From Nitrospira sp. (GTDB taxonomy: Bacteria > Nitrospirota > Nitrospiria > Nitrospirales > Nitrospiraceae), in the NCBI GenBank assembly GCA_003135435.1, contig PLBR01000102.1, positions 13,303-73,944 of the forward strand: a DNA stretch of 60,642 nt. The letters run 5' to 3'. The position numbers and the translations under genes are program-made. A model generated the notes under the pieces. That model saw only the letters and a program-made list of their open reading frames with translations. It was not told the origin of the DNA and did not search any database. This document shows, piece by piece, positions 12,273 through 59,427 of this stretch (positions are counted from its first letter, which is position 1; each line of letters opens with the position of its first letter).

Positions 12273-12295
12273 ATGACCTCATTGCAATACGGAGG

Positions 12296-43557: not shown

Positions 43558-43665
43558 ATTTGCCGAATCCCCACCGAAATAAAGTCTAGAATATCCAATT
43601 CTCGATTAGACCAAGTAGAACAGTCAGCCGGTCTCAACTTATTGATTAAACAAGAGCTTCGGGGT

Positions 43666-44811
43666 ATGCTCCAAGAGATGGTCACTGAGAAAAAGGCCCT
43701 CACGGTGCTCGCCAAGCGCCAACGCAAGAAGAGACCCAACAAGAGCCGATGGGATGTATCCCCGCGGCCCACCGACCAGCGTCTGGACTTCCCACCAGAG
43801 TACGAGGAGGTCGGTGCAGGAGCAGATCCCAGTGAAGAGGACTACGACCTCATCGGACCAGTGATCCTCGCCTATAACGAAGCCTTCCAGCACCGTCGAC
43901 CGACCACACGCTACCAGTATGAGAGCACGATCAACGGGTTCCTCACGGCCTTGAAGCTCCATGAGAACTTACCGATACAGATGATCGACCGTGAAGCCTG
44001 CCAGCGATGGAAGGCGAGCCTGTTGAATCAGACCATCGGAAGGAAACGGAAGGCGATCTCGACACAACAGAAACTCAAGGCGTTCGGGCACTTCACCCGC
44101 TGGCTGGTCGCTCAGGACTTTCACGGGTTCGCACTCGACCCCATGCGAGGACTGCTGTTACCCGCTCGTGTGGTGGCCGATTCGAAGACGCGCAAAGAAG
44201 CCTTCACAGATCCCGAGCTGGCGATTATCGTGAGCGCCCTCGCACCGTTCAGAGATCACGACCAACCAAACAAGCGAGAGTTCTATTGGCTGCTGCTGTC
44301 CCTGATGGTGACAGGTGCTCGCATGTCAGAGCTCCTCGACATCAAGGCCATCGACATTCGCCCGGTGGAAGGCATCCACTGCTTCGATATCAAGTCTAGT
44401 GAAGGGCGGAACATCAAGACCAAGTCCTCTCACAGGAAGGCGCCGATCCATTCGCAGCTCATCGGCTTGGGGTTCCGGGACTGGCTCGCAGCCGGCACGA
44501 CTCCTCATGCATTCCCGCTGCTGAGCACGGCTGGCGTACCGCTGGTGAGTAGGTGGGTCGGTGATCTCCTCAAGAGCTGTGGAGTGAAGCGTCCTGAAGT
44601 ATCGGCGCATAGCCTACGACACAGCATGACGGTCAACCTTGAACGAGCCAAGGTGCATCCGTCCGTCATGGCGAAGATCCTGGGACATGCGCTTGTTGGG
44701 AGAGGAGTAGAGGGGACGACGTATCTGCAGAGTCTGAGTTATCCGGTGAAGGAGCTAGCGGAGGCAGTGGAAAAAGTCAGGTTCCCACTGTCCGGCGAAG
44801 GTGTGCCGTAG
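43666..44811 (+). CDS. tyrosine-type site-specific recombinase (phage integrase family)
   Basis: First ATG at 43666; the track start 43642 is TTG. C-terminal catalytic pattern TGARMSEL......DI, AHSLRHSM and ILGH......Y. Confidence 0.85.
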   Translation: MLQEMVTEKKALTVLAKRQRKKRPNKSRWDVSPRPTDQRLDFPPEYEEVGAGADPSEEDYDLIGPVILAYNEAFQHRRPTTRYQYESTINGFLTALKLHENLPIQMIDREACQRWKASLLNQTIGRKRKAISTQQKLKAFGHFTRWLVAQDFHGFALDPMRGLLLPARVVADSKTRKEAFTDPELAIIVSALAPFRDHDQPNKREFYWLLLSLMVTGARMSELLDIKAIDIRPVEGIHCFDIKSSEGRNIKTKSSHRKAPIHSQLIGLGFRDWLAAGTTPHAFPLLSTAGVPLVSRWVGDLLKSCGVKRPEVSAHSLRHSMTVNLERAKVHPSVMAKILGHALVGRGVEGTTYLQSLSYPVKELAEAVEKVRFPLSGEGVP

Positions 44812-44817
44812 GGCGAC

Positions 44818-45567
44818 TTAACACTCTGCGGTCAGCTCGCAATCATCTAAAGAGATATGGTGCAAACTAAAATCTTTTACTTGCCCAAGGACCATGACAG
44901 GATCTCCTCGCTTCAATTGAAGGAGACGATGATACCACGTGTTTCTATTAAAATCTAAATAGAGAAACGGGTGTTGACTCGGCACCGGGTCGCATCCCAT
45001 TTTATCGTACCCCTCTATGGACAGGCGCATTCGGTTCTTGTCCGCGTGGGGCTCTGTAACATCCTTTACTCGTCCAGTAATTTTCATCCATTTTCCTAAA
45101 TGGTTTTCTTTGAGTCTCTGAGTCTGTATTGTTGTAAGCCCTTTTAACAACCCCACGAGGTATTCAGGCCCGCTGTCCATCACCTCATAAATAGCATCGT
45201 GGGCACCAGCTTGTAAAACAATATCAAGGTTCGGGTTCTCACTCTTTTTAGGCTGTGTCTTAACCAACTTAGTTAGTCCATCAGGCAATGCCGTAGTCAC
45301 ATCTGCTTGCCTTTCGTCTTTGCCTGTTCTCCGGCGAGCGAACAGCTTTTCTGGCACTTCATAGGCGATTAAAAGCATGACCACACCAATAAAGGTAACT
45401 ATCGAGCGCCCTACATTGCCAAGCATGTTCGCATCCCAGTTTACGACGACACCTGCCAGAGATATGAAATACTTCGCCCACTTTTGGATTTGTTCCGGGA
45501 GATCAATTATGCCAATAACCGTGAAAACAAAACCAAAGAACCCAAGAATCTTCCGTAGCAAAACCAT
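44818..45567 (-). CDS. membrane-anchored protein with C-terminal OB-fold-like domain
   Basis: Two N-terminal hydrophobic helices. The C-terminal HLGKWMKITGRVKDV...RGDPVMVLGQVKDF...ISLDDCEL resembles the tRNA_anti-like OB pattern. The DNA is visibly AT-richer than the flanks. Confidence 0.55.
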   Translation of the reverse strand: MVLLRKILGFFGFVFTVIGIIDLPEQIQKWAKYFISLAGVVVNWDANMLGNVGRSIVTFIGVVMLLIAYEVPEKLFARRRTGKDERQADVTTALPDGLTKLVKTQPKKSENPNLDIVLQAGAHDAIYEVMDSGPEYLVGLLKGLTTIQTQRLKENHLGKWMKITGRVKDVTEPHADKNRMRLSIEGYDKMGCDPVPSQHPFLYLDFNRNTWYHRLLQLKRGDPVMVLGQVKDFSLHHISLDDCELTAEC

Positions 45568-45704
45568 CGCGCACCCTCCAATCAGATAGGGCGTAGGGTG
45601 GCAGAACTGACAGAGGCTGTCCAGGCAAGTTCGGGATCACCGCCCTTGCGAGGACTCAGGACAGCTCCGAGCCCGCCTGGGGCGAGCCGAGGTCGCAGGT
45701 CGCG

Positions 45705-45734
45705 TTGACAGCTTTTAACACTGTGGGATAGAGT
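45705..45734 (+). promoter_or_regulatory. sigma70-like promoter candidate
   Basis: TTGACA (45705-45710), 18 nt, TAGAGT (45729-45734), 20 nt upstream of the ATG at 45755. Confidence 0.3.
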
Positions 45735-45754
45735 TGGCCTCAAGAGGGGTGCGT

Positions 45755-46099
45755 ATGATCTCTGGAATTTTCTCAGCCGAGTTTACGTCAAACAAGGACA
45801 TGATGGGCCGCGGTGTTGCTGTTTTCTCAGGGAACGCAATCCATGGTGGGGATGCAGCATATTACTACCGAGGAAAATACAGGCTAGACGCGAGCAATCA
45901 AATTTCAGGAACGATAGAGGCTGTCAAATACTCACCAGTCCAGACTTCAGTCGTTGGCCCACTGGACCGATTCCGACTTATACTCAACGGCATCGTAAAT
46001 GATCAGGGATTTGAACTGTCAGGCCCGGTTGAGGGCCACCCGGATTTACTGATTAGAATTACCTTGAAGAAGATCGATGAATTGATTGAACTTGATTGA
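45755..46099 (+). CDS. GrlR-family-like small protein
   Basis: ATG 45755 after AGAGGGG. G.F...F.......G.GVAVF.GN.I.GGD..YYY.G.Y matches my memory of the GrlR-family (lipocalin-like) N-terminal pattern. Confidence 0.5.
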   Translation: MISGIFSAEFTSNKDMMGRGVAVFSGNAIHGGDAAYYYRGKYRLDASNQISGTIEAVKYSPVQTSVVGPLDRFRLILNGIVNDQGFELSGPVEGHPDLLIRITLKKIDELIELD

Positions 46100-46389
46100 A
46101 GCTTCTCTATTCCACCTGCATCGGGTCGATCTGTCAGACATCATCGGCTGACTCGGCATGACCTACCGACCCTGCCCAAGGCCCTGGATGGCTAGGCAGC
46201 GGGGAACGGACAGGGCTTCGGTGCCTTCTCGCCTTCCCATTTCGTCAGCATCTCGCTGATCCCTGCGAGGCCGGGCAGATGATACAGTCGTGAGGGGGGA
46301 GCCCTACGAGATCCTCGCCGATCATTCTGAGAAGGACGGCGATGAGCCCTGACCCTTCTCTATAGCGCACTTGCCAGCTGGTCAATTCA

Positions 46390-47016
46390 ATGGACTTTCC
46401 ACTTTCAGACCACGCGCTAAAACACGAGTCTGACCGTGGTGCCGTTCTCGTTGGAGCCGCTATGCTCGATGAGAGCTTAGCGCGACTCTTGAGGGCCGCG
46501 TTCATTTCTAAAGAACCAGTCCAAAAGAAATCGATCAGTAAGTTATTTGGGCCTAATGGACCACTTTCAAGTTTTTGGGCGAAACTGCACCTCGCAAATG
46601 TCCTCGGTCTCTTGAATTCATCACTACACTCTGATCTTGAGGTTTTCCGAAAGCTTAGGAATCGCTTTGCTCATCAGATGGAGCCCGCTGATTTTGGTGA
46701 TACGACCGTCCGACATTTGGCGAACCTACTATCGACAACCGTTCATCTTAGAGTCGGGATGGACACATATACCGCACAGGCAACAGATGGGAAGAAGGTC
46801 TCTGAAGATCAACTTGTTAAGGACGGATATGTTAAGACTGCTAGAGCTGAGTTCAACGTGTGCCTTTCGCTTTCACTAGCAATAATAGAAGGCATTACTG
46901 CAACGGTTTCAAAGTCTGGAATTGAGGCGGGTCGCCTAATGGCTCAAGAACTTGGCAACTTCGGAGAGGTATATCTTAAATACAAAAAAGAGCAAAGTAG
47001 AAGTGGCTCGTTATAG
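46390..47016 (+). CDS. MtlR-like (mannitol-repressor-like helical domain) protein
   Basis: SDRGAVLVGAAMLDESLARLLRAAF....LFG.NGPLSSFWAKLHLA..LGLL.......L..FRKLRNRFAH fits the pattern typical of that domain. The C-terminal half is unassigned. Confidence 0.5.
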   Translation: MDFPLSDHALKHESDRGAVLVGAAMLDESLARLLRAAFISKEPVQKKSISKLFGPNGPLSSFWAKLHLANVLGLLNSSLHSDLEVFRKLRNRFAHQMEPADFGDTTVRHLANLLSTTVHLRVGMDTYTAQATDGKKVSEDQLVKDGYVKTARAEFNVCLSLSLAIIEGITATVSKSGIEAGRLMAQELGNFGEVYLKYKKEQSRSGSL

Positions 47017-47127
47017 TTGTTGTTCCTGTTGAGGGAGAGTGGAGAAGGGTGCGGTTCCCGGCGTAGAGAGACACCGTCCAGCTGAAGATACTCAAGAGGC
47101 GGTGGACAAGTTGGACTTGGGGGTGGA

Positions 47128-47721
47128 CTAGGCAGTCAGAAGGATGGCCGCCACAAATGCAATCATGAAAACCAAAATGATAGGGGCCAACCATCGGCGG
47201 AGACTGTTGAACTGTTCCTCACCGCGCTTAACCCTTTCCCACTCTGTCTTCAGAACGGTTCGTGACTGATTGGTAGCAAGCCCAATTGCTGCAAAGACGT
47301 TTTCTCTCATCTTGGGGTTGTTGGAACCTTCTGCGTTGTACTGGTCAACGACAGCATCCACTAGACGCTCCAACTCGATATGTTCGGTCTTCATCTTGTT
47401 TAGTCTAAGCTTGATTCGGTATCGCGTCTCACCTATGGTCATAAGTGAATCCGCAATGTGATCAGCGGATGCAGGATATGGGCGGGTTCTACCATCCTTG
47501 CCTGCCTCTAGAACGTCGTGAACGGCATTTGCCAAATATCGAAACCCAGCAAAGAACTTAGCCAAGTCTTCTCGCAGACCATCGATCCAAGCCTGCCGCA
47601 TTTCGGAAACTTTTTGCTCCTTGCTCAGGGTCAGATTTACTATTGCGATAACGCCAGTGATTAGCGCCGCGACTACCGTAGCAATTGCGACTATCGCTGT
47701 AGCAGGAATCGCAGTATGCAT
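47128..47721 (-). CDS. membrane protein, one N-terminal and one C-terminal TM helix
   Basis: ATG at 47719-47721; the track GTG start 47781 would overlap the next gene. Hydrophobic ends flank a helical soluble middle. Confidence 0.5.
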   Translation of the reverse strand: MHTAIPATAIVAIATVVAALITGVIAIVNLTLSKEQKVSEMRQAWIDGLREDLAKFFAGFRYLANAVHDVLEAGKDGRTRPYPASADHIADSLMTIGETRYRIKLRLNKMKTEHIELERLVDAVVDQYNAEGSNNPKMRENVFAAIGLATNQSRTVLKTEWERVKRGEEQFNSLRRWLAPIILVFMIAFVAAILLTA

Positions 47722-48459
47722 TATGGCCCCGACCTTGGTTCTAACGTGTGCTGCGGGGCAGTCTACCCCAAAGTCGGACACGTATCCATCACACCGGCTA
47801 GACCTTCTCCCGGACCTATAGACCTTGCGCCGCCGTTCGCAACCCTCCTACAATACGCCTTCCTACCTACGAGGCTTCTGGTGAAACCTAAGTTTCCCAA
47901 ACTCTTGAAGCTCTTGCAAAGACGAGAGTTCCCCAAACTCTATGCGTTAGCTAGCATCTGGGTTGCGACTCCGTTACTTTACATCTGTACGTTTGTCTAT
48001 ATCCAGAATGCTATCTTTCAACCAGCAGCCCGCGCGTTCCCAATAGGGCTGTCAGCATTCGGCGTGACGGCGGCCTTGTCTGGTATTTCTTTCAGCATGG
48101 CGAGGGTTTCCGAAAATCCCAGCACAGCTAAATATGCGGGAGAGAAGTTTCTACACTCGGCCATTCTTCTCATTCAGGGCCTCTTTCTCATTTACATTCG
48201 TGACTCAGTGGGAGAGAGTGAATTACTAAAACCGTGGCCGAACCTTGTCTTAGTCGTCAAGGCATCTACTGTTGGTCTGCTTACTCTCCTGACGGCAGCA
48301 GCCGCGTGGACGTGGTTCCACGGATTCGAAGAACTCAACAAGTTCTTATGGAAGAACTGGGAAGAAAACATTCAGGCTATGAACGCACGCCAGCAGGACA
48401 AAGCCCCCATCGTTGTTCCGTTGGAGGCGGATAAGGACATACCCAACCAAAAGGCCTAG
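47716..48459 (+). CDS. multi-TM membrane protein
   Basis: At least four hydrophobic segments. A GTG at 47881 with an upstream GAGG is an alternative start. Confidence 0.45.
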   Translation: MHYGPDLGSNVCCGAVYPKVGHVSITPARPSPGPIDLAPPFATLLQYAFLPTRLLVKPKFPKLLKLLQRREFPKLYALASIWVATPLLYICTFVYIQNAIFQPAARAFPIGLSAFGVTAALSGISFSMARVSENPSTAKYAGEKFLHSAILLIQGLFLIYIRDSVGESELLKPWPNLVLVVKASTVGLLTLLTAAAAWTWFHGFEELNKFLWKNWEENIQAMNARQQDKAPIVVPLEADKDIPNQKA

Positions 48460-48710
48460 ACCTTCTCCCGGAGCCTTGCGTTGATCTCACTGATGAGCCC
48501 CTGGAAAAGTACGAACTTCTTGGGATGATCGGTCAGTAGGCGATCGATCCGGTGGAGAAGGGTCACCCTGGTCATCCTCGCTGCTCGCTCCTGTCGTTCG
48601 ACGGTCCAGGCATCGGTGTAGACCTTCCAACCTGCGTTGGCCCTGGTCTGCTTTGCTTCTGCCCTAGCGTTCTTCTGGCTGGCCGTTCGCTCTGTACGAG
48701 TAAGCGCCAT
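48456..48710 (-). CDS. small basic protein
   Basis: 84-aa ORF rich in R/K/T with no family recognised. Its 4-nt overlap is with the convergent gene's stop. Confidence 0.4.
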   Translation of the reverse strand: MALTRTERTASQKNARAEAKQTRANAGWKVYTDAWTVERQERAARMTRVTLLHRIDRLLTDHPKKFVLFQGLISEINARLREKV

Positions 48711-48835
48711 GATGGTTTCACTTCTCCTGTTGGATTTGATGGTTGGACTGAAACTGGTTTCACGAGAACTGACCAGATGGACAGCTGGCGTGAAACTGGC
48801 CTGAGATGAGCGCGGTACTCTACTCTTACCATGAG

Positions 48836-48973
48836 CGGTACCCTGCTGGACTGTTAGCGGTACCCTCTGCCGCTGGTCTAACCAATACCCCAGAGTAAGA
48901 CCCTGAGCTTTCTCTGTTGGGTTGATGTCGAACAGGTGGCAGAACGGTGAGAGAACAGTCCAGCAGGGTACCG
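48836..48973. repeat. perfect 18-bp inverted repeat CGGTACCCTGCTGGACTG / CAGTCCAGCAGGGTACCG separated by 102 bp
   Basis: Arms at 48836-48853 and 48956-48973. Extra direct GCGGTACYCT copies at 48811 and 48857. TGAAACTGG and TGGTTTCAC repeats at 48711-48800. Confidence 0.7.
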
Positions 48974-49027
48974 AAAACAGGCCTCGCTATAGTCATCCTC
49001 AAGTAGGAGGGGGTACACCCTTATAGA

Positions 49028-50521
49028 TCAACAGGTTATGAGGCCAACTTTTCCATGTGACGGAATTTGACACCCTGTGATCTTGAGGGAGACTGATTGC
49101 ATAATTACTGAGATCCGGTCAGCCTGAGAGATTGGGACAACCAGGCAATCGTGGACCGGGAGACCGATCAGACCTTCCTGCTTGAGTTGCGAGAGCGCGG
49201 CGATAATAACTTGACTTTCGATGAACTGCAGGCCGTGCCCTTTGTTGTCGCCTAGCAGGTGCGCAATGGGCCGGTGTTGCGTCTTGATGAGTTCGATGAT
49301 CTTCCTGGCACCCTTGGCTCTATCGGCTTTGGTGAACTTGTTTCCGCTACCTTTGGGGAACTTGCGACGGTTCGGCTTCTTATCGAAGGTGAGGGCGAGC
49401 ATGAGCGTCTTGATTCCTGAGCGGCTGGCTGGATCAGTTCCGGTGATGTGGTAGATGTCGGCCGCTGGTGGTGCTGCGTTGACGGAGGCATAAAGTGAGT
49501 GAAAAGGAATGGAGTTGTAGTCAAGCTCCACAGTCCGCTCTCCGTTCAGTAAGATCCGTTCGCGTCGATCCACCTTAGACATCGGCGTCCAAAATCCGCC
49601 GAGAAGCCTTCCGCCTGATGTCCAGCTCGCATAGGTGAATTGTCGCTGGAGGAATCGGTCTCGTACGTCGATGAAGGGGAGCCCTTCCCGATTGATCACG
49701 AGGATGTTGGATTTCCACAAGAGTTCGTTGACGTGTTGCATCTCCAGCCGGTAGCCGTTGGCGAGCACGTCGAGATCTGAGTACTCGTCGAAGGCGCTGG
49801 TCTTGTCCTTCTTGCGCCGGATGATCTCCTGGCCTGTGCGGTCCCAGGAGGTATCGAGTGGAGAGGTAACGTGACAGTCGACCATGAGATTGCGAAGGGT
49901 GCGTGTGCTGCGAATGAGGGATTTATCTACGCCGCTTTCTGGTCTTGTGTGGCTTCTCCAGGCCTGTCCGCGAACTTGTTGGAACAGTCCGCATTCGGTG
50001 AGGGCATCGATCACCGGAAGGAACCGGCGGTTGACGTGCAGAGGGCGATAGCGTGAACGGATGCTGTACCAGGCTTTCGTCCGTGAGAATGTCACGCCTT
50101 CAATGGTGGGATCGGTCAACTCCGCATTCACGACAGCGGAGAGGGCTCCAGCGACGAGTACGCGGTACTCGGCCAGGTCGACAGCGGAGAGTGTGAGACC
50201 CTTGCGCTGCCAGAAGTGGCGTTGGTAGCGGATGAACTTTTCCCAACAGAGTTCGATCAGCGAGAACATCGCGGGGGTCGCCGGGATGCAGTAATAGTCA
50301 AAATCCTTGCGGGCGGTGTCGTCCTCGTCGTCCACGGCAACAGCAAGCCGCGTCACGTCATCTGCCGTTGGCGTCTGTGTCGTCCACGCTTCGACAAGCG
50401 CCGGGAGCATCTTCTCTTTATCTTTACCGGCCCAGAACGCCACCTTGGAGTCTGCGGAGTGCGTGCGCTTGCTTGCAGCTTTCCATCGGGGAAGAATTTT
50501 GTTGAGTGCGGTGATGTTCAT
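49028..50521 (-). CDS. family-A (Pol I/T7-like) polymerase-like protein, minimal palm/fingers, no exonuclease domain
   Basis: TSGGRL (aa 301-306, compare TxxGRL of Pol I). Motif A VELDYNSIPFHSLYA (compare DYSQIELR). Motif B RSGIKTLMLALTFD (compare RxxAKxxNFGxxYG). Motif C LPVHDCLVV (compare QVHDELV). Confidence 0.65.
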   Translation of the reverse strand: MNITALNKILPRWKAASKRTHSADSKVAFWAGKDKEKMLPALVEAWTTQTPTADDVTRLAVAVDDEDDTARKDFDYYCIPATPAMFSLIELCWEKFIRYQRHFWQRKGLTLSAVDLAEYRVLVAGALSAVVNAELTDPTIEGVTFSRTKAWYSIRSRYRPLHVNRRFLPVIDALTECGLFQQVRGQAWRSHTRPESGVDKSLIRSTRTLRNLMVDCHVTSPLDTSWDRTGQEIIRRKKDKTSAFDEYSDLDVLANGYRLEMQHVNELLWKSNILVINREGLPFIDVRDRFLQRQFTYASWTSGGRLLGGFWTPMSKVDRRERILLNGERTVELDYNSIPFHSLYASVNAAPPAADIYHITGTDPASRSGIKTLMLALTFDKKPNRRKFPKGSGNKFTKADRAKGARKIIELIKTQHRPIAHLLGDNKGHGLQFIESQVIIAALSQLKQEGLIGLPVHDCLVVPISQADRISVIMQSVSLKITGCQIPSHGKVGLITC

Positions 50522-50628
50522 GTCTCGATATGCTCCATTTTCAGTGGTTGTTAGAACGGGTCGTGAAACGTCAGTTAACGCCCTCGCCTTGCGGTTGGAG
50601 GCGACCCGTACCTTGCTCTGTTACGCTG

Positions 50629-50757
50629 TTACGTACATCCCTGTAGCCCGTTCTTCTTGGTCACCTTGAATATCGTGATGGTCGCAGCCTTGTAGATGCT
50701 GCAGCCGGGGAGGGCGAGTGGGAGAGCGCGCGCGATAGCTGTGATGAGTTTGAACAT
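50629..50757 (-). CDS. 42-aa putative lipoprotein
   Basis: Not in the ORF track because it is under 60 aa. ATG at 50755-50757 follows AGAAGGAGATCAAACC. MFKLITAIARALPLALPGCSIYK has a lipobox-like LPGC. Confidence 0.35.
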   Translation of the reverse strand: MFKLITAIARALPLALPGCSIYKAATITIFKVTKKNGLQGCT

Positions 50758-50892: not shown

Positions 50893-51237
50893 TTATTGGC
50901 AATAGGTCTGCTTCCCGTTCGTGGTGCATGTCTGTGGTCGTCCCCCATTCTGATACGGACTGACCAGGCTATACGAATGGTTCCGTTCGCTGTCCCGCTG
51001 GACCTGTCGCTGTGCTTCGCGGCTTCGCTCCTCAGCCTCTCTGTGTTGCTCCGCTTTATATTCGTGATCGCGTTGTTCAGCTTGCAGCGCCTCATTTCTC
51101 ACGGTGTCCTGGAACGCTCGGTTGTCGAGGTCCTCGTCAGCGGCCAATGCGAGACCAGCCCCGATCAAACCACCGAGCAAAATCCCAAGTGAGACACTAG
51201 CACCTCTAACCACTGTGGATCTGATTCGGTTGCCCAT
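50893..51237 (-). CDS. N-terminally anchored protein with charged helical ectodomain
   Basis: ATG at 51235-51237 after GAGAGG. TM segment VSLGILLGGLIGAGLALAA, then an E/R/Q-rich segment. Confidence 0.5.
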   Translation of the reverse strand: MGNRIRSTVVRGASVSLGILLGGLIGAGLALAADEDLDNRAFQDTVRNEALQAEQRDHEYKAEQHREAEERSREAQRQVQRDSERNHSYSLVSPYQNGGRPQTCTTNGKQTYCQ

Positions 51238-51572
51238 GTGTTCCACCTCTCATCTGTTTGTGACATGTTGCTACTACGTGTGAGCTTAAGCCGCTTCCCG
51301 CGTTCGTGGTATTCCTCGAACGTACTGGGTCGCTCATGGTTGGCTGTCGCTCGTCGCGTCTGGGTCGGAGCCCTATCGAGCCACCATTCGATGAACCCAT
51401 GATCGATGCTGCCTAGCTTCGTGATCGCCAGTCTGCGTGACCGTTCCCTTGGGTTCCCTTGCAGGACCTCCAGCGGAGAGCGCGTCTCCGGCTCGGTGCT
51501 TTGCCTCTGCGGTCGCCAGTATTTTGGAGGCTTCGTGAGTTTTGCGTGCGTGCCGATCTTTTGGAGTGCCAT
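51165..51572 (-). CDS. hypothetical protein
   Basis: 135-aa ORF in the island gene array. Its 3' end overlaps the next gene by ~73 nt, so the end or frame is uncertain. Confidence 0.35.
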   Translation of the reverse strand: MALQKIGTHAKLTKPPKYWRPQRQSTEPETRSPLEVLQGNPRERSRRLAITKLGSIDHGFIEWWLDRAPTQTRRATANHERPSTFEEYHERGKRLKLTRSSNMSQTDERWNTWATESDPQWLEVLVSHLGFCSVV

Positions 51573-51757
51573 CAGTGCGCGTCCCGGTGCGCGTTGAACG
51601 CATTGAGTACGGCCGCATCAGTCGCTGCCACTGCGACCCCTTGGACGAGCCGAGCTACTCCATCTTTCATGGACGCGCTTTGGTCTCGGTCTGGAATGGT
51701 CGTCACGATATCTGAGCCATTGGCAGCGGTGCCGTGGTCGGTCCTGGTCGTGCTCAC
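51572..51757 (-). CDS. hypothetical small protein
   Basis: 61-aa ORF joined to its neighbours by short (1- and 4-nt) start/stop overlaps. Confidence 0.4.
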   Translation of the reverse strand: MSTTRTDHGTAANGSDIVTTIPDRDQSASMKDGVARLVQGVAVAATDAAVLNAFNAHRDAH

Positions 51758-52386
51758 GATCTAATCCCGCCCAGATCTACTGCCTCAGAAGAGCGACCAG
51801 CGTCTACTCTGTCGTGCTTCTCCTGGATTGTTTTCTTATCGGCTAACGCTCGATACGCAGCTTGCTCATCTCGAATGGATTGAGCACTGCCGTTTCCCAG
51901 TTCAACGCGCACCTTCGTGTTGACCTTCTGAGCCGTCCTATCCACGAACCGGTCGCCCATCACGGAGTCGATCTCATCATTGTGATCAATTAACCACTGA
52001 CGAACCTCTTCCCGGTAGCTTGGAGAGTGCTCGTATTTGAGCCGGCCTTGCTCGTCCTTCGCCATGAAGAGGTTCTGCGCGTGTTCGTTGGCGATCTCTC
52101 GCAGGACTTGCTTCCTCGCGCCTTCAGGATCGCTCATCGCCCGCGCCAGTTCACGACCACTGACCACGGTAGAAGGAGCGTTCACCTTCGCAGCCGCTTC
52201 GTTCTTCATTCTATTTTCGATCATCTTGGAACACAGCAAGCGGAGCGAGGGATCAGTCTGATATTCCTTCATCCGCTGGACTTGGTGCATCTCCTCATCG
52301 CTGTTGAACGCGCATGTCTCTGGGTCGAGCATCTGGCCGGTGGTGCGGTCTAGGAGCCATTTGTTATCTTTCGGTACGGTGATCAT
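51754..52386 (-). CDS. hypothetical phage-like protein
   Basis: ATG at 52384-52386 after GGAAGGAAAG. 210 aa, charged and helical. Confidence 0.6.
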   Translation of the reverse strand: MITVPKDNKWLLDRTTGQMLDPETCAFNSDEEMHQVQRMKEYQTDPSLRLLCSKMIENRMKNEAAAKVNAPSTVVSGRELARAMSDPEGARKQVLREIANEHAQNLFMAKDEQGRLKYEHSPSYREEVRQWLIDHNDEIDSVMGDRFVDRTAQKVNTKVRVELGNGSAQSIRDEQAAYRALADKKTIQEKHDRVDAGRSSEAVDLGGIRS

Positions 52387-52388
52387 GG

Positions 52389-52694
52389 TTACTTTCCTTC
52401 CTGTGGTGTGAGGGGTGATGTAGGCGCTGTCTCGTCGCCGGTCTGTGATGACCCCATGTTGAGCCATGCGTCGGAGCGGCGAGCGTGTGCCGCCTGCTTC
52501 TCTGTGGCGATCTCTTCGGGTGTGCTCTCTTTGCGTGTGACGCGAACCGTTCCAGAAGCGAAGCGTTCGCACTTGGAGTGACTGTCTTCGGACAGGATAA
52601 TAGAATCCATCGTGTCTGCGACCACGTCCACAGTGGCGGGTGGCTTGCTGAACGATACGGGGAAGGTGGGAGGTGTGTACGGTTTCGGTGGCAT
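52389..52694 (-). CDS. hypothetical protein
   Basis: 101-aa ORF ending 2 nt before the next start. Confidence 0.5.
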   Translation of the reverse strand: MPPKPYTPPTFPVSFSKPPATVDVVADTMDSIILSEDSHSKCERFASGTVRVTRKESTPEEIATEKQAAHARRSDAWLNMGSSQTGDETAPTSPLTPQEGK

Positions 52695-52698
52695 CTAG

Positions 52699-52974
52699 TT
52701 ATTTCCTCTTCGAGATATAGGTTGAGTCTGTGGCTCGGGCGCATTCATGTCTGATGGTGCCAACGTCTTGACGACTGAGTGATTCCGCATAGACGGCGAA
52801 CGCTCGCCTTGCTGCAGTTGAGCGCGAGACCGGAACCGTGGGTGCATCGCTGCCACGTCTGAGTAGGTCTTGAATGGTCAGCAAGTTCGCAACGGCGGCG
52901 GCGTCCAGTTCCATTGTGAGACGGTTTTTTGCAGCGCTGCCATACTTCATCTTAGGGGCGCGGTCTGGTTGCAT
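52699..52974 (-). CDS. hypothetical protein
   Basis: 91-aa ORF. ATG preceded by GGAGGTTTTTAACG. Confidence 0.5.
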   Translation of the reverse strand: MQPDRAPKMKYGSAAKNRLTMELDAAAVANLLTIQDLLRRGSDAPTVPVSRSTAARRAFAVYAESLSRQDVGTIRHECARATDSTYISKRK

Positions 52975-53186
52975 CGTTAAAAACCTCCAGTGTTAATGCG
53001 TGAAAGAGTGTGATTACACGGGAAACGAAAACCCTTTCCCCTCCCCAACGTGAAAGGAACCCACAGCGCCGTTATTGGCACCAAGGAACACGTCGAAGAG
53101 AGGTCGAGGCTAAGTCACACTTTGCGATGGTGGAACATCAGCGCAGTCGTGACAAAGAAGACGAGGTATGTGAAACCGTGCAGCAT

Positions 53187-53381
53187 TTAGTGATCCGTGC
53201 GCGTGGTCGTTTCGTTGGGAGGACTACCAGCCTGTCCTTCCGTCTGGATCACAGGTGGGATAATGCTGACTACTGGCGACTGGTGCGCTGCATCTTGACC
53301 GTTCGTGGCTGGTGATGCTGCATCGATCCTGACAGTCTGGCCTACTGGGAACACTTGGACGCCGTTAACGATTGTACTCAT
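53187..53381 (-). CDS. hypothetical small protein
   Basis: 64-aa ORF, third in a row of three small genes separated by 3-37 nt. Confidence 0.45.
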   Translation of the reverse strand: MSTIVNGVQVFPVGQTVRIDAASPATNGQDAAHQSPVVSIIPPVIQTEGQAGSPPNETTTRTDH

Positions 53382-53384
53382 CGC

Positions 53385-53585
53385 TTATGCCCACTTAATG
53401 CCTAAAGGTTGGGTGCTGTCAGCTGTCAGTCGTTGGGTGTCGGTGGCTGCGGGGATCGTGGTCCACTTGTTCGTCACCGGGTTCCAGCACACGAGGTCAC
53501 CCTTCTGCGCATAATTTGAGGTGTCCGGGTGACTGTCGGCGGGCGTGACGGGGATTGAGATGTTGGATGGAACGATGGCGCTCAT
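53385..53585 (-). CDS. 66-aa protein, paralogue of 53623..53823
   Basis: Shares YAQKGDL....N..T......P......Q.LT.DS....LGIKWA with its neighbour. Confidence 0.6.
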   Translation of the reverse strand: MSAIVPSNISIPVTPADSHPDTSNYAQKGDLVCWNPVTNKWTTIPAATDTQRLTADSTQPLGIKWA

Positions 53586-53622
53586 GCTGGTTGTTTCCTT
53601 AATTCGTTAGAGGGTGAACTTC

Positions 53623-53823
53623 TTATGCCCACTTGATGCCAAGCGCGGTCGATGAATCGAGGGTCAAGATCTGACCATTCGTACCCACCGGAAGCCGTTC
53701 AAACTTCAGCGTGGTCGTGTTATACACTCGGAGATCTCCCTTCTGCCCGTAGATCATGGGGTCTTGCGTAGCATCGTTGCCTGGGAGTTCCGGGGAATAG
53801 TTGCCGGGAATGACACCTGCCAT
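53623..53823 (-). CDS. 66-aa protein, paralogue of 53385..53585
   Basis: MAGVIPGNYSPELPGNDATQDPMIYGQKGDLRVYNTTTLKFERLPVGTNGQILTLDSSTALGIKWA. The pattern recalls N-terminal modules of phage tail-fibre/receptor-binding proteins. Confidence 0.6.
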   Translation of the reverse strand: MAGVIPGNYSPELPGNDATQDPMIYGQKGDLRVYNTTTLKFERLPVGTNGQILTLDSSTALGIKWA

Positions 53824-53865
53824 AGTAATTTTTCCTTTATGTGGTGAGGTTGTTGTGGCCGACTG

Positions 53866-56403
53866 TTACTGCTGCGCGGGAGGATTGGCGATGGTGTCGA
53901 GGCTATCGTACTGCCGTGATCCTCCGACTCCAAAGCCAAAGTCTGTAGAGGCGTTTTCTCTCGCAGCGCGTTCCATATACCGTGCCTTGACGCGCTTCTT
54001 GATCAGGTCCTCGGTAGCCAGTTCTCGTTGTGCGGCTGGTGCCTGTGGGAACCGCCTGTCGAACTCTGCGCGGATCGCGGCTCGCTCTTTGGTGTCCGCT
54101 TCCGCCTGCGTGAGTGGCTTGGCTGGCACGAACGTGTCGCCATTCCAGTGACCAGGATTCCCATACTTCGCATACTTCGACTCGTCGGAGAACGTGGGAT
54201 GATTAGGAAGCTTGAACGTATCCGGCCAGTGTCCCGTCTTTGGATCAGGTTTGATTCCCGCTTGGAATGCCCCACGGAGATCGTAGTCTTGACCACTGTC
54301 TCGCGGTGCGTAGACCTTCTTCCACTCTTGGAACTTTACTTCGTCGGCTGGTGAGAGTTTCGTGCGAAGGTGATCGAAGTTGGCGGGCTGGTGATCGGCT
54401 ACAGGCTCTTTCCCGTTAAACCTGCGGGCCGCATCGTGACCTTCCTTAAGGATACCAGAAGCGTTCGCACGATCCATCAGGGCGATCCGGTCAGTCTCTG
54501 CCTGGGCCTTCATCACCTGCAGCTCCTCGTCAGGGCCTTGATGTACCCACTCGCCGTTCTTGTTCTTGAAATCTCCACCGATCTGACTGTTGTGTGTGAT
54601 CGCCTTCGCCGCCGTCTCTGACAAGGCCAGATCCGTGATGATCTTTTGTTTCGCCTTCTCGGTGTCCTGTCGCTTCTTCTCCTCCCGGGCCATGTCGTTG
54701 TAGTTGAACGCGGTCGGTTCGACGCGCTTCCGCATCTCAGCAGTAAACGCAGCCTGGGAGATGTTGGGATGGTGATCGAGGTATTCGATACCTTGCGCTC
54801 TAAAATCTGACTGGGCGAGCGTGGCTGCTATGTTGCCTGTTCCAAACAACGCGGTCTCATCTTTCAAGCTCGCCTTGCCCACTCCGCTTTCGAGGACGGC
54901 ATAGCCTGGATCAGATAAGAAGTTGTGATATTTTAGGTCCGCTTGCCCCATTGTTTTGTTGAGTTCATGCGAACGGAGCCAGCCTTCCACGCCAATGCGA
55001 TGATCCTTCATGGCCTGATCAATCATCCCGGTGGTCTTCGTGGTGCCTGGGTGTTGTGTGATTTCTGCTCGGAGTTGCATCTCAGTTTGCGGGAACGCTT
55101 CCTTATCCCCGAGGTCTGCGCGATGCTCACGTTGTTTCATCACTTGCTCCCCCAGGTGCTCCGCGTGTGCCGGGCTATCTTTGCGTACCTCTTCCAGTCG
55201 CCGGTCTTGTTCTGCGACATCTGCCGGACTCATCGCTTGGAGATCGGGGAAGTTGAACACGTTATTCGTGTGCGCCTGGGTGAGTTGCTTGAGCTGGAGG
55301 TCCTGTCGCTCCCAATCGTTCTTCATCCGCGAGGCGTCCACCGCTGAACGCTTGCCGGCGATCCGTTGCTCGTCTGTGCCAAGGATGGCTTGGTCTTCGA
55401 GGTAGTTCTTCGCCACCAAGTCTTGATGCTGTTGAGCCACAATGTGGTCTCTCACCGGCCCGGACATGGTGATAAAATCATTCGTCTTCGTGATGGGTGC
55501 GACACCACGCTCCTTCCGTTCCTGATCAACCGCCTGACCGATGGTGTTGACGAGTGTGGAGTCCTTCGCGTTCTTCGACGCCTGCGCGATTCCAAGCACT
55601 ACCATCTGAGTCGCTCGGGTGCCGCGCATGCCGGTTTCCCGCATGGCCTTTTCAGTCGCCGCGATCTCTACAGCAGCTGGCGCAAAGTTCCGCGCATGCG
55701 GCTCTAGCGGTTGTCCATCCGTGCCGACAAGGGAGCGCCCGATGGCTGATTCGACACTTGAGGCAAGCGTGTCCTCGCCCTTCTTCGTGCGCTCGTCCAC
55801 GATCACCGAGGTGTTGTGGGCGTTCAGGTGTGCGATGGCTTCGTGTTGGATGAACCCGTACTGACTGTCAGCCAGCTGTTTTGGGGAGAACTTCGCCGTC
55901 GCGCCGTCGTAGAGGTGATCCTTGTTGTACTGTGCGGCATGGTCCGTCGAGAACTTCTCGAACGCGCCTGGAGGAGCATCGAGTTGTGCGACCCCGGACT
56001 GTGACCAGGCGTTTGTCAGGTCAGCGGCGTAGTCATCGGCATATCGCTTGGCGTCGAGCGTCTTATAGCGATCTTCATAGAAACGTGACTGACCGGGCTC
56101 GATGAGACCTTCTCGCACGGCATCGCCATAACTTTTCTGGGTGCGAAGGTGATCCTCGTCGGCCTTGGCGAGTTGTTGGGCGGTGGACTGCTGACCGAGC
56201 CGGCCCGCATATTGTTGGAGTGCAGGATTGAGTTCCGAGAGACCAGCCGCGAATTGTTCCAGCTGGTTGACGTTGGGAACTTGCGCAACTTCTCTTTCAG
56301 TGGGAGCCTTGTATGGTGCGCCGATGATCTGGGCTTGCGGCTGGAGGTCGGGAGCTTGCACGATCTCGTCGGCAATGGCTGGACGTTTGAATGGATTGGC
56401 CAT
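53866..56403 (-). CDS. large (845 aa) phage-like structural/ejection-type protein, function unknown
   Basis: Long uninterrupted ORF, helical and charged. The C-terminal block DYDLRGAFQAGIKPDPKTGHWPDTFKLPNHPTFSDESKYA resembles a module I have seen in phage virion proteins. Confidence 0.75.
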   Translation of the reverse strand: MANPFKRPAIADEIVQAPDLQPQAQIIGAPYKAPTEREVAQVPNVNQLEQFAAGLSELNPALQQYAGRLGQQSTAQQLAKADEDHLRTQKSYGDAVREGLIEPGQSRFYEDRYKTLDAKRYADDYAADLTNAWSQSGVAQLDAPPGAFEKFSTDHAAQYNKDHLYDGATAKFSPKQLADSQYGFIQHEAIAHLNAHNTSVIVDERTKKGEDTLASSVESAIGRSLVGTDGQPLEPHARNFAPAAVEIAATEKAMRETGMRGTRATQMVVLGIAQASKNAKDSTLVNTIGQAVDQERKERGVAPITKTNDFITMSGPVRDHIVAQQHQDLVAKNYLEDQAILGTDEQRIAGKRSAVDASRMKNDWERQDLQLKQLTQAHTNNVFNFPDLQAMSPADVAEQDRRLEEVRKDSPAHAEHLGEQVMKQREHRADLGDKEAFPQTEMQLRAEITQHPGTTKTTGMIDQAMKDHRIGVEGWLRSHELNKTMGQADLKYHNFLSDPGYAVLESGVGKASLKDETALFGTGNIAATLAQSDFRAQGIEYLDHHPNISQAAFTAEMRKRVEPTAFNYNDMAREEKKRQDTEKAKQKIITDLALSETAAKAITHNSQIGGDFKNKNGEWVHQGPDEELQVMKAQAETDRIALMDRANASGILKEGHDAARRFNGKEPVADHQPANFDHLRTKLSPADEVKFQEWKKVYAPRDSGQDYDLRGAFQAGIKPDPKTGHWPDTFKLPNHPTFSDESKYAKYGNPGHWNGDTFVPAKPLTQAEADTKERAAIRAEFDRRFPQAPAAQRELATEDLIKKRVKARYMERAARENASTDFGFGVGGSRQYDSLDTIANPPAQQ

Positions 56404-56409
56404 GATGTA

Positions 56410-56712
56410 TTATCCCTTCGTCTCGTCGGCGTAGGTGTCCTTGACCATCAGGCGGATTTCGGCTCGCAGCATACCCACGTCCAGGTCTTCGTTGTCGCTG
56501 GCATAGATGGCGAGGTGCTTCGCATATTCCTGGAGCGCCCTCCGCACGAAGCTTGAGAGATTCACGGCTGGTACAAGGACCTGACAGCGTGCGATGATCT
56601 GGTCGAGGGCCGCCTTGTCAGCGGCTGGAAGCAGGATGGAGATCCGGGCGTCGGTGCCCTTGATCGTGTTCGGTCTGCGCTTGGCAGAGGTGGGGACGTA
56701 GTGGTTGCCCAT
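56410..56712 (-). CDS. small protein, possibly ribbon-helix-helix DNA-binding
   Basis: ATG at 56710-56712. RISILLPAADKAALDQIIA looks like an RHH beta-strand plus helix. Lies immediately downstream of the iteron region. Confidence 0.45.
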   Translation of the reverse strand: MGNHYVPTSAKRRPNTIKGTDARISILLPAADKAALDQIIARCQVLVPAVNLSSFVRRALQEYAKHLAIYASDNEDLDVGMLRAEIRLMVKDTYADETKG

Positions 56713-56843
56713 GATGTGAAGAACTCCTGTTGTTGTAGGTTGATGGTGAGGGAGGCTTGATACTATTTGCTGAAAAAAGGTGCATGAATCCGAATGGTTA
56801 CCCGCCAGCATGAGCCAGCGGGTGAGTAAGCGGGGAGGAACGT

Positions 56844-57119
56844 AAGTGGTCCACAGAGCACCAGGCGAAATCGAATGATGATCTCCACAGAGGGGAACAT
56901 TGAAAAAACCGTGGAATGTGAGTGGTCCATGGACCAGGCTGTTGCGAAAAAGTGTTAGTGGTCCGCAGAGTACGTCCTAAAATCGAATGATGATCCTCCA
57001 AGGAGTGTGTCCTGAAATCGAATGATGATCTCCACAGATGAGTACATAGCAAGTGCAGTGCTGAAGGTCGCCGGGTGACCGGCTCAGACGAAATGAAAAA
57101 ATGTTTCTCTTCCACAGAG
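56844..57119. repeat. iteron-like direct repeats in a 570-bp ORF-poor spacer
   Basis: AAATCGAATGATGATCTCCACAGA at 56868-56891 and 57015-57038 are identical over 24 bp, with a variant at 56980-57003. AGTGGTCCRYRGA occurs at 56844, 56920 and 56956. TCCACAGAG recurs at 57111. Confidence 0.7.
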
Positions 57120-57285
57120 GAAGTAGTTGCAAATGCACCCTGCCCACACCACGACTTACGTGCAAACATTCAAGTAGAATTAGAAGGTTGCGTTGAATCG
57201 TGGCGTGGGCGTAGGCGATGAGGCTAGTTGGCACGGGTTTAGTATGTCGTCTTGTTCAAGTAAACCTTAAGGGTGCAGGGTGAGG

Positions 57286-57816
57286 TTACAGGAGCCCACG
57301 TCTCCCGGCTTCCTCCATGCTGATGAACTCTTCATCGGCGCGCTTGTCTCCGGGGAGCCGTCTCAGTCCGGTTCTCTTCTCGCGTGCCATCCGCTTCGCT
57401 TGCTTGGCGTCGAGGAGGAGTTTCTCGTCATAACTGCGCTGTTCCTTGAGACCGTGATCGGCCCATTGCTTCAGCATCGCTTTGTCGAACCGTGCCATCT
57501 CCACGGCTTCGAGTTCGCGCTTGAACATTGGACGCCACTGCTTACCGTTGCGCATCCATGGTTGTGCGGGAGAAGCATCGACTACGCGGGCTGGCGAAGT
57601 GCTGGCGGTATAAGGCGGGAGTTCAGATATACCCGGCTCTGTCGCGTCTCCTGCCGTTAGCTTACTCGTCTCCTTACCGTTCTCCTTACCGTTCTCTTTC
57701 TCTTCTGGCGCAAGGCCCTCGTTGCTGCCGCCTTGCATGTTCCTGAGTACTTCACGAATGGCTGTCTCGCGCTTCCGGCTGCGTTCGAGTTCGAGGAGGT
57801 CACTCTTAACACTCAT
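57286..57816 (-). CDS. hypothetical protein (charged, low complexity centre)
   Basis: 176-aa ORF. ATGA overlap with the upstream gene. Confidence 0.55.
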   Translation of the reverse strand: MSVKSDLLELERSRKRETAIREVLRNMQGGSNEGLAPEEKENGKENGKETSKLTAGDATEPGISELPPYTASTSPARVVDASPAQPWMRNGKQWRPMFKRELEAVEMARFDKAMLKQWADHGLKEQRSYDEKLLLDAKQAKRMAREKRTGLRRLPGDKRADEEFISMEEAGRRGLL

Positions 57817-58541
57817 GGTCTCATTCTCCCTTGTTTATCTGGGTTCAGTTTGATCGCTCGTTGCGGGGTGCTGGTTAGCATGTGGGTGAGCACAGCGGCT
57901 TCGAAGTGTGGTGATTCGCGTAAGAAGAACCGGATGTCACGGCTGAGGAGATCGTGCAACCTGCCCACGATGAGTCGCCCGGTAGGAAAGGGCCTGGGCC
58001 GCTTCCAGCCTGGGGAGGGCTTACCCTCACGTCGTATCAGGGACGACACAGCCCGCATGATGGCGAACCGACAGAACCACTCGTCCCTTGGCACGTCTGG
58101 TTCGACTCGACAACACACGATCACGCCTAACACGGTGCTCGCTATGACCAGAGCCGCGTCATCGTCGATGGGGTAGCGGTGATGAATGTTCAAGAGGACG
58201 GCTTGAGCTTTAAGCTTAGGCTTGAGGAGCCTCCACTGGGCCAAGGTCACAGTCCGGTCGATCCGGTGGCGGAAGATGGCGGTGAGGGCGTGCAGGAGTC
58301 CTATCGTGGCTGGATCATGCCGGCGAAGGAGCTGCTTCAGGATAGCCTGACAGGATCGGATGTAAGGGAGGCGTGAGGAACGTCCCAAGGAGATACCGTT
58401 CTGGTTACCGTTCTTGGTGCTGGCGTTGTGGTGTGCCAAGCAGTGGACTTCGGCAACATGGCGTAAACGCTCACAGCCACGCACTGTGCAGGGCTTTGGC
58501 TTTGAGATAGTTCTAGTTAGAACCATTCGTGGGATGTGCAT
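57813..58541 (-). CDS. hypothetical protein with N-terminal Cys/His cluster
   Basis: 242-aa ORF, first gene of the long minus-strand array. CTVRGCERLRHVAEVHCLAHH suggests a zinc-binding element. Confidence 0.55.
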   Translation of the reverse strand: MHIPRMVLTRTISKPKPCTVRGCERLRHVAEVHCLAHHNASTKNGNQNGISLGRSSRLPYIRSCQAILKQLLRRHDPATIGLLHALTAIFRHRIDRTVTLAQWRLLKPKLKAQAVLLNIHHRYPIDDDAALVIASTVLGVIVCCRVEPDVPRDEWFCRFAIMRAVSSLIRREGKPSPGWKRPRPFPTGRLIVGRLHDLLSRDIRFFLRESPHFEAAVLTHMLTSTPQRAIKLNPDKQGRMRP

Positions 58542-59427
58542 TTTAGACCCCGGCTAGCTGGAAATGAAGAGGTGTAGACGCGATGCCGACCGTCCTGGTT
58601 GGAGTGTCAGAATGATGCCGCTCTGGATAGGCTAACGGATCTCTCATCCGTTATGATCTCTATGTTATCGCTGACTTAGTGGCTGTGCTGTCACCGATCA
58701 GGCAACAGACCCTACCTGTTGTGGTGCCCTGGGAGGTAACCTGGACGCGGTTTTGGCTGGGGCTCTGGGGGGTTTGGCGGCTTGGACGTAGGACGTACCC
58801 CAAACGAACTTTTGCTTCCAAATTATTTTGGTGAAACCATGTTGTATATCGCGCCTTTACGGTATACGAACAGTACCTCGAAGTGACCTCGACCGGTAAT
58901 TTCTGACTCCCCAAATGTGTACCAAACTGTATTCACCTGGAGCCAGTCGAGGTTCTCGAACCGTCCTCGGTGAGGCACCCAGGCGTTCACCTCCAAAACA
59001 CATACCTTCCAACTACGTGATTACAGGCCCTCATTTTGGCACCCCCACGCCAATCAACAAAATGAGAGGCCATATGTGGAGGGATGAGGAATCTGGACTC
59101 AGCCACGAGTCAGCTAGAGGCCTTCTGTGTGGTTGCTTTCGTGCCTTGTGGCATGTTATGGATCGGTTATGCTCGTAACCCACGGAGGAATCATGGACAC
59201 AACCCATTCTCGATAGGTTACGATCCTCGCCGTCCCTATTTTGATAGCGTGGAAGAATTTCCTCATTTCTCCCCCTTGACTTGGACGAACCCGAGGCTAT
59301 CTCTACTCTCGTGTTCAGCGGATCAGGGCTTCTGCTCGTTCGGGAGTACCACGGTTACGCCATCGAGTTCGAACCTGTTCTACATCGTTTAAATTCACGG
59401 GATTAACTTTACGAGGAGGGTGTCGTT

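Follow-up and report, generated by a model that had tools for sequence, protein, structure and literature searches.

Phage satellites such as SaPI1, which exploits phage 80alpha, and P4, which exploits P2, are integrase-led islands of ~11-16 kb that occupy a fixed chromosomal site, amount to about one third of the helper genome, and carry replication genes of their own but no capsid, portal or terminase genes. To our knowledge, the helpers of the phage satellites described so far are siphoviruses and myoviruses from a small number of well-studied hosts, and a full-text search of the literature found no description of a satellite with T7-type core genes or with a helper of the Autographivirales type. 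Among the elements of environmental bacteria, VEIMEs and PICMIs are small satellites packaged in full-size helper capsids (PMC9618062, PMC10803314), and they have been reported to lack both capsid remodelling and virion genes (PMC9618062). Here we analyze an island of 15.6 kb from Nitrospira sp. that resembles SaPI1 and P4 in all of the features listed above, its helper being presumed. It lies between rpoH and groES in a stretch of 60,642 nucleotides (the window; contig PLBR01000102.1 of assembly GCA_003135435.1, positions 13,303 to 73,944) and encodes a homolog of gp15, an internal core protein of T7-type podoviruses. On balance, and with modest confidence, we favor the interpretation that it belongs to an undescribed family of satellites that depend on T7-like (Autographivirales-type) podoviruses as helpers.

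The island is a real, strain-specific and mobile element, as shown by nine relatives with empty sites and by an att core at both junctions. We examined the surroundings of rpoH in 30 related genomes, and in all nine congeneric genomes that were compared across both junctions rpoH is followed directly by groES. Homology of the window to these nine loci ends at ~43606 and starts again at ~59203, with the two flank alignments overlapping by ~12 bases within the empty sites (...CCAATTCTCAATAGGTTATGATCC...). A direct repeat of 9 bp, ATTCTCGAT, falls on both breakpoints of homology, with its copies at 43598-43606 (attL core, plus strand) and 59206-59214 (attR core, plus strand). The 9-mer by itself is weak evidence, being present three times in the window versus 0.7 times expected; it is the placement at both junctions that carries weight. 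We conclude that the element was inserted by site-specific recombination at the 9-bp core between rpoH and groES. It spans 43598-59214 and measures 15,608 bp from repeat start to repeat start. Mobility is further supported by an element of ~12.6 kb in a very close relative of the host (L011/L012/L013), because it shares the same rpoH-groES site and an integrase that is 80% identical, yet its gp15 is only 47% identical. The stretch just inside attR (59150-59205) is conserved between the two elements (GTAACCCACGRAGGAATCA...) and is a candidate arm-type binding site for the integrase.

These comparisons bear on a preliminary description of the window, which had proposed a mobile integrase-led island between rpoH and groES and had suggested looking for the empty junction in related genomes. 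The proposal is borne out by the empty junctions and by the related element at the same site. So is the layout given there, which agrees with our analysis of open reading frames and composition: a recombinase gene after rpoH, AT-richer cargo (44818-48710), and a co-directional block on the minus strand running from 58541 down to 49028. The extent of 43558-59427 proposed at that time, i.e., from the stop of the sigma-32-type rpoH gene (43557) to the start of groES (59428), is replaced by the boundaries above, and the att direct repeats that had been missed are now located. No tRNA target had been seen, and indeed the window contains no tRNA gene. Lastly, conservation and synteny of the block in all relatives had been named as the outcome that would speak against an island; a full-length gp15-like gene was found in none of ~400 other genomes of the phylum.

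The protein that ties the island to T7-like phages is encoded at 53866-56403 on the minus strand and is 845 residues long. It has no sequence match in Pfam, PHROGs, NCBIfam or the PDB, a tblastn search of GenBank phages gave no match, and only four full-length relatives were found among 5.8 billion proteins. A profile search of 1.84 billion representatives recovered 324 more distant relatives, mostly of 550-750 residues. One branch of this family led to two IMG/VR contigs, L026 and L027, both of which are T7-like and carry the homolog in the gp15 slot. The first of these is a 45,052-bp virus rated complete, with the gene order of T7: scaffold, major capsid, tail tube A and B, gp14-type internal virion protein, the homolog, gp16-type protein, tail fibre and large terminase. 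The 845-residue protein matches the gp15-slot protein of this virus by BLASTP (3e-39 over 725 columns), and hhalign of the two family alignments gave a probability of 100% and an E-value of 7e-48. Its AlphaFold2 model is all-helical, with a mean pLDDT of 55 and good scores for residues 70-330. Foldseek searches of BFVD with this model returned proteins of Pelagibacter podophages and entries named “internal virion protein” of T7-like phages (E down to 1e-7), and in the PDB its two best fold matches are to T7 core proteins (7eyb and 9jyy; E 0.05-0.1). We conclude that the protein is a homolog of the T7 gp15-type internal core protein, in line with its earlier placement among internal-virion or ejection proteins. 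Assignments as a relaxase, portal or capsid protein were considered and rejected, given the empty Pfam, PHROG, NCBIfam and PDB sequence searches and a fold search and synteny that indicate gp15.

The C-terminal part of the protein holds a module, DYDLRG...HWPD...PNHPTFS (54100-54350, residues ~690-765), that is 50-70% identical in many otherwise unrelated large proteins, some of which carry LPD23 (PF18838) or SLT (PF01464). This DYDLRG module was found both in phage gp15 proteins and in the proteins with LPD23 or SLT domains, and it appears to be a mobile module found in proteins that virions deliver.

A second link to T7-like phages is provided by a scaffold-like protein of ~200 residues (51754-52386, minus strand), which contains the motif of the T7 gp9 scaffold twice. 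Its family has 20 members, of which 11 have a precomputed match to PF05396 (“Phage T7 capsid assembly protein”). The ortholog in the related element L014 matches PF05396 with 35.4 bits (gathering cut-off 27.1; E 1.8e-8), as well as phrog_1052, annotated “head assembly” (3e-6), which is the family of the true scaffold of L026. Unlike the island protein, with its two copies of the C-terminal motif in ~200 residues, the T7 gp9 scaffold is ~300 residues long. By analogy with other scaffolding proteins and with CpmB of SaPI1 (PMC5644958), the motif may bind capsid protein. CpmB and the 80alpha scaffold have been described as sharing the capsid-binding end (PMC5644958), and the island would be similar in encoding a small protein with the capsid-binding end in common with a helper-type scaffold.

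The remaining virion genes expected of a tailed phage were not found. Searches with Pfam, PHROGs and NCBIfam recognized no terminase, portal, capsid or tail gene in the island, which upholds the preliminary view that it is not a standard tailed prophage. None of the real island genes contains a Walker A motif or encodes a P-loop NTPase, and this rules out terminases, packaging ATPases, Zot-type proteins and helicases. When all genes of L026 and L027 were searched against the island, gp15 was the only one with a homolog, and hidden Markov models of ten island core families had no match in these two phages. The set of genes that would mark a T7-like prophage (gp10 capsid, gp8 portal, gp11/gp12 tail tube, gp16, gp19 terminase and RNA polymerase) is without homologs in the island. 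The same holds for the hallmarks of P4-like satellites (Psu, Sid, Delta, Epsilon and the alpha primase-helicase), for those of phage-inducible chromosomal islands (PICIs) such as SaPIs (Stl/AlpA regulator, primase-replicase, small terminase, Ppi/Cpm/Rpp) searched with Pfam, PHROGs and NCBIfam, and for the major capsid, portal and head-completion genes that cfPICIs encode themselves. Judged by its recognizable genes, then, the island is none of a PICI, a P4-like element, a cfPICI or a T7-like prophage.

Its differences from each known system are correspondingly clear. SaPI1 (with CpmA/CpmB) and P4 (with Sid and Psu) have siphovirus and myovirus helpers, whereas the presumed helper of the island, inferred from genes alone, is a T7-like podovirus. 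Homologs of Sid, Psu, Delta, CpmA/B, AlpA, Stl, primase and small terminase were not found in the island, which, unlike SaPI1 and P4, has an internal core/ejection protein and a minimal family-A polymerase as its putative replicase. With T7 itself the island shares its gp15 homolog, the PF05396 motif of the ~200-residue family and, in related elements, PF24072 (T7_gp14). It differs from T7 in being integrated, in its size of 15.6 kb, in its gene order, and in lacking capsid, portal, tail tube, gp16, fibre and terminase. VEIMEs and PICMIs resemble it in their small size, their integrase, their occurrence in environmental bacteria, the scarcity of recognizable genes and the lack of capsid genes. 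Those elements are marine, however, while the island family comes from Nitrospira-type hosts of freshwater, soil or engineered systems, was not seen in IMG/VR, and keeps scaffold-like and core-protein genes as well as a polymerase of its own.

Could the island instead be an autonomous small virus, whose shell protein, forming an unrecognized capsid or a pleomorphic membrane-bound virion, is hidden among the unassigned core proteins? No function is assigned to at least eight of the conserved core genes, the island encodes a membrane protein and has a lipoprotein-like open reading frame, and the core genes are all co-directional, as in small viruses. Yet gp14, gp15 and the gp9 motif, which according to what is known of T7 assembly function solely together with an HK97-type capsid and a portal, would be out of place in such a virus, since the island has neither. 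In addition, there is no packaging NTPase, the largest unassigned protein has 242 residues, and the element is absent from IMG/VR. To this explanation we give the least credence of all those considered. A virus of the Corticoviridae, Tectiviridae, Microviridae, Inoviridae or Plasmaviridae type was rejected on similar grounds: no packaging or Zot-type ATPase, no Walker A motif, no capsid matches, and a largest protein that is gp15-like.

The island is one of a family. We found ~9 variants with the same compact core, 11-16 kb in size (L013, L014, L019, L020, L028, L033, L034, L036/L037 and L038), which sit at three integration sites in two host genera. Six metagenome contigs (L014, L019, L020, L033, L036 and L037) have the same gene order as the window element. 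Elements of the family are present in metagenomes JGI 3300050138 and 3300078387 and ENA ERZ27254241. Another variant (L028/L029) occupies a different host site and encodes an extra protein of 232 residues that matches PF24072 (T7_gp14) at 55 bits. L030 and L034/L035 each carry gp14, an Endonuclease_7 gene and a scaffold-motif protein; the latter also has a polymerase-like gene that is 53% identical, a toxin-antitoxin pair and another integrase, and is without gp15. Finally, L038, whose host belongs to another genus within the bacterial family, combines an integrase, Endonuclease_7, a replicase candidate of 700 residues, a scaffold-like gene and gp15. Its proteins had no match when searched by sequence against the PDB. 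In transcription order, the shared core consists of p242, p176, (iterons), a ribbon-helix-helix-like regulator, (gp14), gp15, (zero to two fibre-like mini-proteins), a “TRTDH” mini-protein, p91, p150, the scaffold-like protein, p135 and p117. None of the related elements has a gene of the size of capsid, portal, tail-tube or terminase genes. Searching more widely, we did not find the window element with the gp15 alignment among IMG/VR viral contigs and GTDB representative genomes, an integrase search of genome contigs and two scans of metagenome contigs returned nothing, and alignment A5 had no match in viral contigs.

Endonuclease_7 (HNH-type) genes recur in the family: at 2351-2989 and 10574-10963 of L013, in L030, at 8384-8947 of L034, in L036, and at 3962-4429 of L038. 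The T7-like phage L026 has one as well, located in its structural region (8944-9384). None is recognizable in the window island, where p242 has an N-terminal Cys/His cluster only. These genes could relate to packaging or to homing.

Purifying selection acts on three genes of the family. For unsaturated pairs, to which the calculation was confined, the ratio of non-synonymous to synonymous substitution rates (dN/dS) was 0.13-0.14 for gp15 (dS 1.1-1.4), 0.11 for the polymerase (dS 0.61) and 0.17 for the integrase (dS 0.89). Ratios of 0.11-0.17 mark these three as working genes rather than debris, and together with the compact core kept by ~9 variants they argue against decay. This bears on the possibility that the island is a cut-down, decaying remnant of a temperate T7-like prophage. 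Such a remnant would account for gp15, the gp9-like motif and the family-A polymerase, all of them T7-type parts, and frameshifts in gp15 and p135 of L028, as well as a polymerase-gene fossil in the cargo of the window (see below), would fit with it. Nonetheless, the gene order differs from that of T7, divergent variants keep the same small gene set without a capsid, portal or terminase in any of them, dN/dS is low, and the integrase and att sites are intact, making a remnant very unlikely.

The replication module of the island contains a gene at 49028-50521 (minus strand) for a protein of 497 residues, probably without an exonuclease domain. No sequence-level match to Pfam or the PDB was found for it, and matches to GenBank phages were weak and limited to hypothetical proteins of large Vibrio phages. 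It matches phrog_4756, unassigned in function, at 2e-19, and 14 relatives were found. The AlphaFold2 model (pLDDT 83.8) has a helical N-terminal part of 140 residues, and in a PDB fold search all of the top 50 matches were Pol I large fragments (Taq, Bst and Aquifex; probability 1.0, E down to 2e-5). The TM-scores of 0.24-0.29 indicate only partial overlap with Pol I folds. At its length, the protein is too short for the full Klenow-type architecture. Residues D334, R367, K371 and H457-D458 lie at the positions of motifs A, B and C and are invariant across 15 homologs. The protein is thus predicted to have a family-A DNA polymerase fold with conserved catalytic residues, as the preliminary description had suspected. 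Few family-A polymerase-like proteins that keep all catalytic motifs are as small, and for this reason it merits biochemical study. A search of the L026 record for this polymerase-like gene gave no match.

The island also contains two repeat structures. Three iterons of the GAAATCGAATGATGATC(T)CCACAGAG type, in a region that had been noted before, were confirmed at 56842-57052. Just 3' of the polymerase gene, two perfect inverted copies of 20 bp are separated by a 98-nt spacer (48836-48855 / 48954-48973), with a terminator-like hairpin inside. In a scan for promoters and terminators, sites were no commoner than in shuffled sequence. With these parts, the element is probably able to replicate. 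The polymerase is absent from L013 and L014, which carry an unrelated protein of 344-558 residues in its place, so the replication module is exchangeable.

Such a module would also suit an integrative plasmid-like element that replicates as an episome by means of the family-A polymerase and the iterons, and in which the phage-like genes are incidental cargo. The polymerase, iterons, inverted repeat and integrase, the lack of virion shell genes, and the swapping of the replicase among variants, as in plasmids, are all compatible with this. However, what the variants conserve is the set of phage-derived genes, and it is the replicase and cargo that differ among them; gp15 evolves under purifying selection; and no partition, relaxase or conjugation gene was found among the island proteins. 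We therefore regard a plasmid-like element as quite unlikely.

The integrase gene, at 43642-44811 on the plus strand, most likely starts with the ATG at 43666, which yields a tyrosine integrase of 381 residues (PF00589 5e-10, phrog_1 1e-26) with the catalytic residues R, HxxR, H and Y all present. It is followed by variable, AT-richer cargo in mixed orientation (44818-48710), in which GC content falls to 0.44-0.47 in places versus ~0.57 in the flanks. The cargo encodes three proteins predicted to lie in the membrane from their transmembrane segments (44818-45567 and 47128-47781, both minus strand; 47716-48459, plus strand), a GrlR-like protein (45734-46099) and an MtlR-like protein (46390-47016), both on the plus strand and both with matches below the curated cut-off, and a basic protein of 84 residues (48456-48710, minus strand). 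In L033, the closest element, the cargo is much shorter. The window cargo also contains the motif-C end of a second polymerase-like gene (46260-46370, minus strand), a fossil of 37 residues that includes “GLPPHDCIICP”, matches residues 431-468 of the 497-residue protein (BLASTP 1e-8) and the A1 profile (9e-5), and adjoins or overlaps the start of the MtlR-like gene at 46390. It suggests that an earlier replicase copy was replaced or broken up by cargo. The fossil and the much shorter cargo in L033 together point to module turnover beside the integrase. In the related element L034, the cargo beside the integrase includes a pair consisting of a Gp49 (HigB-type) toxin and a helix-turn-helix antitoxin (12013-12785).

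Variable cargo beside an integrase is a feature of defence hot spots, and the island might be a non-packaged interference or defence island, in which gp15 and the scaffold motif serve as decoys that poison the assembly of T7-like phages and protect the host population, with rare spread by other routes. The T7-type homologies are the same as those expected of a satellite, no packaging function is recognized, and the toxin-antitoxin pair of L034 would also be in keeping with defence. Then again, PADLOC gave no credible match to a defence gene in the cargo, and the polymerase, iterons, intact integrase and precise att sites point to excision and amplification. Known satellites interfere with their helpers too, so interference would be compatible with packaging. 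Overall, we consider a purely interfering island rather unlikely.

A helper-dependent satellite, in our view, is the simplest interpretation, because the two or three T7-type virion parts would be useless without a shell, a portal and a motor, none of which is encoded. The preliminary description had left four candidates side by side, namely a satellite, a cryptic element, an unconventional virus and an integrative plasmid; the first is now favored and the other three are not. In a possible life cycle, the element would excise upon infection by a T7-like phage and would be copied by its own polymerase, with the iterons or the inverted repeat as the origin. The scaffold-like protein would then engage the capsid protein of the helper, possibly leading to capsids sized for ~15 kb instead of ~45 kb. 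The element's own gp15 (plus gp14 in relatives) would enter the core of the particle, and borrowed virions would thus package and inject the element. Going by homology, the gp15 homolog and the gp9-motif family protein may act on helper morphogenesis. The ratio between the sizes of the element and of a complete T7-like genome (15.6 kb / 45 kb) is 0.35, which is close to the size ratios of P4/P2 and SaPI1/80alpha.

Several observations weigh against this interpretation. First, the match of the window copy of the scaffold-like protein to PF05396 is weak (14 bits, E 0.066, below the gathering threshold). The matching part is short, being a motif of ~25-30 residues that is found near the C-terminus of the true scaffold and twice in the island protein, and although hhalign places it at the C-terminal end of the L026 scaffold, it does so without significance (probability 0.45%, E 0.13). 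It is therefore the family, and not the window copy alone, that links the protein to a scaffold. Second, no small terminase and no pac or cos site was recognized in the island, and neither a T7-like capsid gene nor a helper prophage was found in the host assembly. A tail-tube B model had no match in this assembly, but it had none in control genomes either and is uninformative. Third, a satellite's need for a gp15 of its own is without explanation. Fourth, no function is assigned to p242, p176, p150, p135, p117 or the mini-proteins, and a capsid of an unrecognized type might be among them. Fifth, the L028 element is an exception to the intact state of the core, with gp15 spread over three reading frames (5753-8151) and p135 over two (10408-11019), which could reflect decay, or assembly or frameshift errors in a metagenome contig. 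Lastly, the element was not found among IMG/VR viral contigs.

Nitrospira-type nitrite oxidizers have a key part in the nitrification of soils and wastewater plants, and we know of no cultured phages that infect them. In public records, proteins at least 90% identical to the sigma-32 of the window bear the names Nitrospira sp. or Nitrospirota. The islands constitute indirect evidence of T7-like phages preying on these hosts, and the island sequences could help to find such phages in metagenomes. If the interpretation is true, molecular piracy extends to podoviruses, and a new question arises as to why a parasite of a virus brings genome-ejection proteins of its own. More tentatively, the islands may be the first recognizable satellite family of T7-like podoviruses and the first of nitrite-oxidizing Nitrospira. 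They might exemplify a wider strategy, in which an element supplies its own gp14/gp15 ejection core and a scaffold mimic and takes from its helper only the shell, portal, tail and packaging motor.

The other genes of the minus-strand block, all on that strand, encode small proteins. The first gene of the block encodes p242 (57813-58541), which is very basic (isoelectric point 11.3), contains the Cys/His cluster mentioned above and has homologs in L013, L014 and L028. It is followed by the conserved basic protein p176 (57286-57816), with homologs in L013, L014, L028 and L030. The ribbon-helix-helix-like regulator (56410-56712, in a reading frame extendable to 56811; weak match to RHH_1, 0.026) is directly upstream of gp15 or gp14 in at least five elements. 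Downstream of gp15 are two tandem paralogs of 66 residues (53385-53585 and 53623-53823) that resemble a fibre-type domain (phrog_32934 6e-6; tail-fibre phrog_9851 at only 0.14). This pair is also present in L020, is absent from L013, L014 and L019, and has no similarity to the fibre N-terminus of L026.

Mini-proteins of the “TRTDH” family, 61-71 residues long, accompany gp15 in every element and lie directly downstream of it unless fibre-like mini-proteins intervene, as they do in the window. Family comparison identified two members here, of 64 residues (53187-53381) and 61 residues (51572-51757), one of which starts and the other of which ends with TRTDH; others are found at 7510-7695 of L013, 10649-10834 of L014, 3257-3442 of L019 and 3290-3505 of L020. 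The family motifs are “TRVD...TIP.TDQSAGPS...(T/V)RTD”, and a motif “RTDRR” is present in the p150 family too. The p150-family protein, conserved in all variants, is shortened to 101 residues in the window (52389-52694). Next to it is p91 (52699-52974), conserved in at least five elements and ribbon-helix-helix-like from its sequence pattern only. On the other side of the scaffold-like gene, p135 (51165-51572) is a conserved basic protein (isoelectric point 9.9) with homologs in L013, L014, L028 and L033.

Of the last two reading frames before the polymerase gene, p117 (50893-51246) encodes an i-spanin-like or membrane protein with a transmembrane helix (residues 12-30), a charged coiled region and a conserved C-terminus with two Cys residues, and it is conserved in L013, L014, L020 and L028. 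An open reading frame of 42 residues with a lipobox-like LALPGC (50629-50757) may, on weak evidence, encode a lipoprotein or an o-spanin-like protein. It is plausible from their sequences that p117 and this lipobox-bearing frame form a spanin-like pair and that the tandem mini-proteins are fibre-like. Short lipobox-bearing open reading frames were also found 3' of the p117 homologs in L013 and L014.

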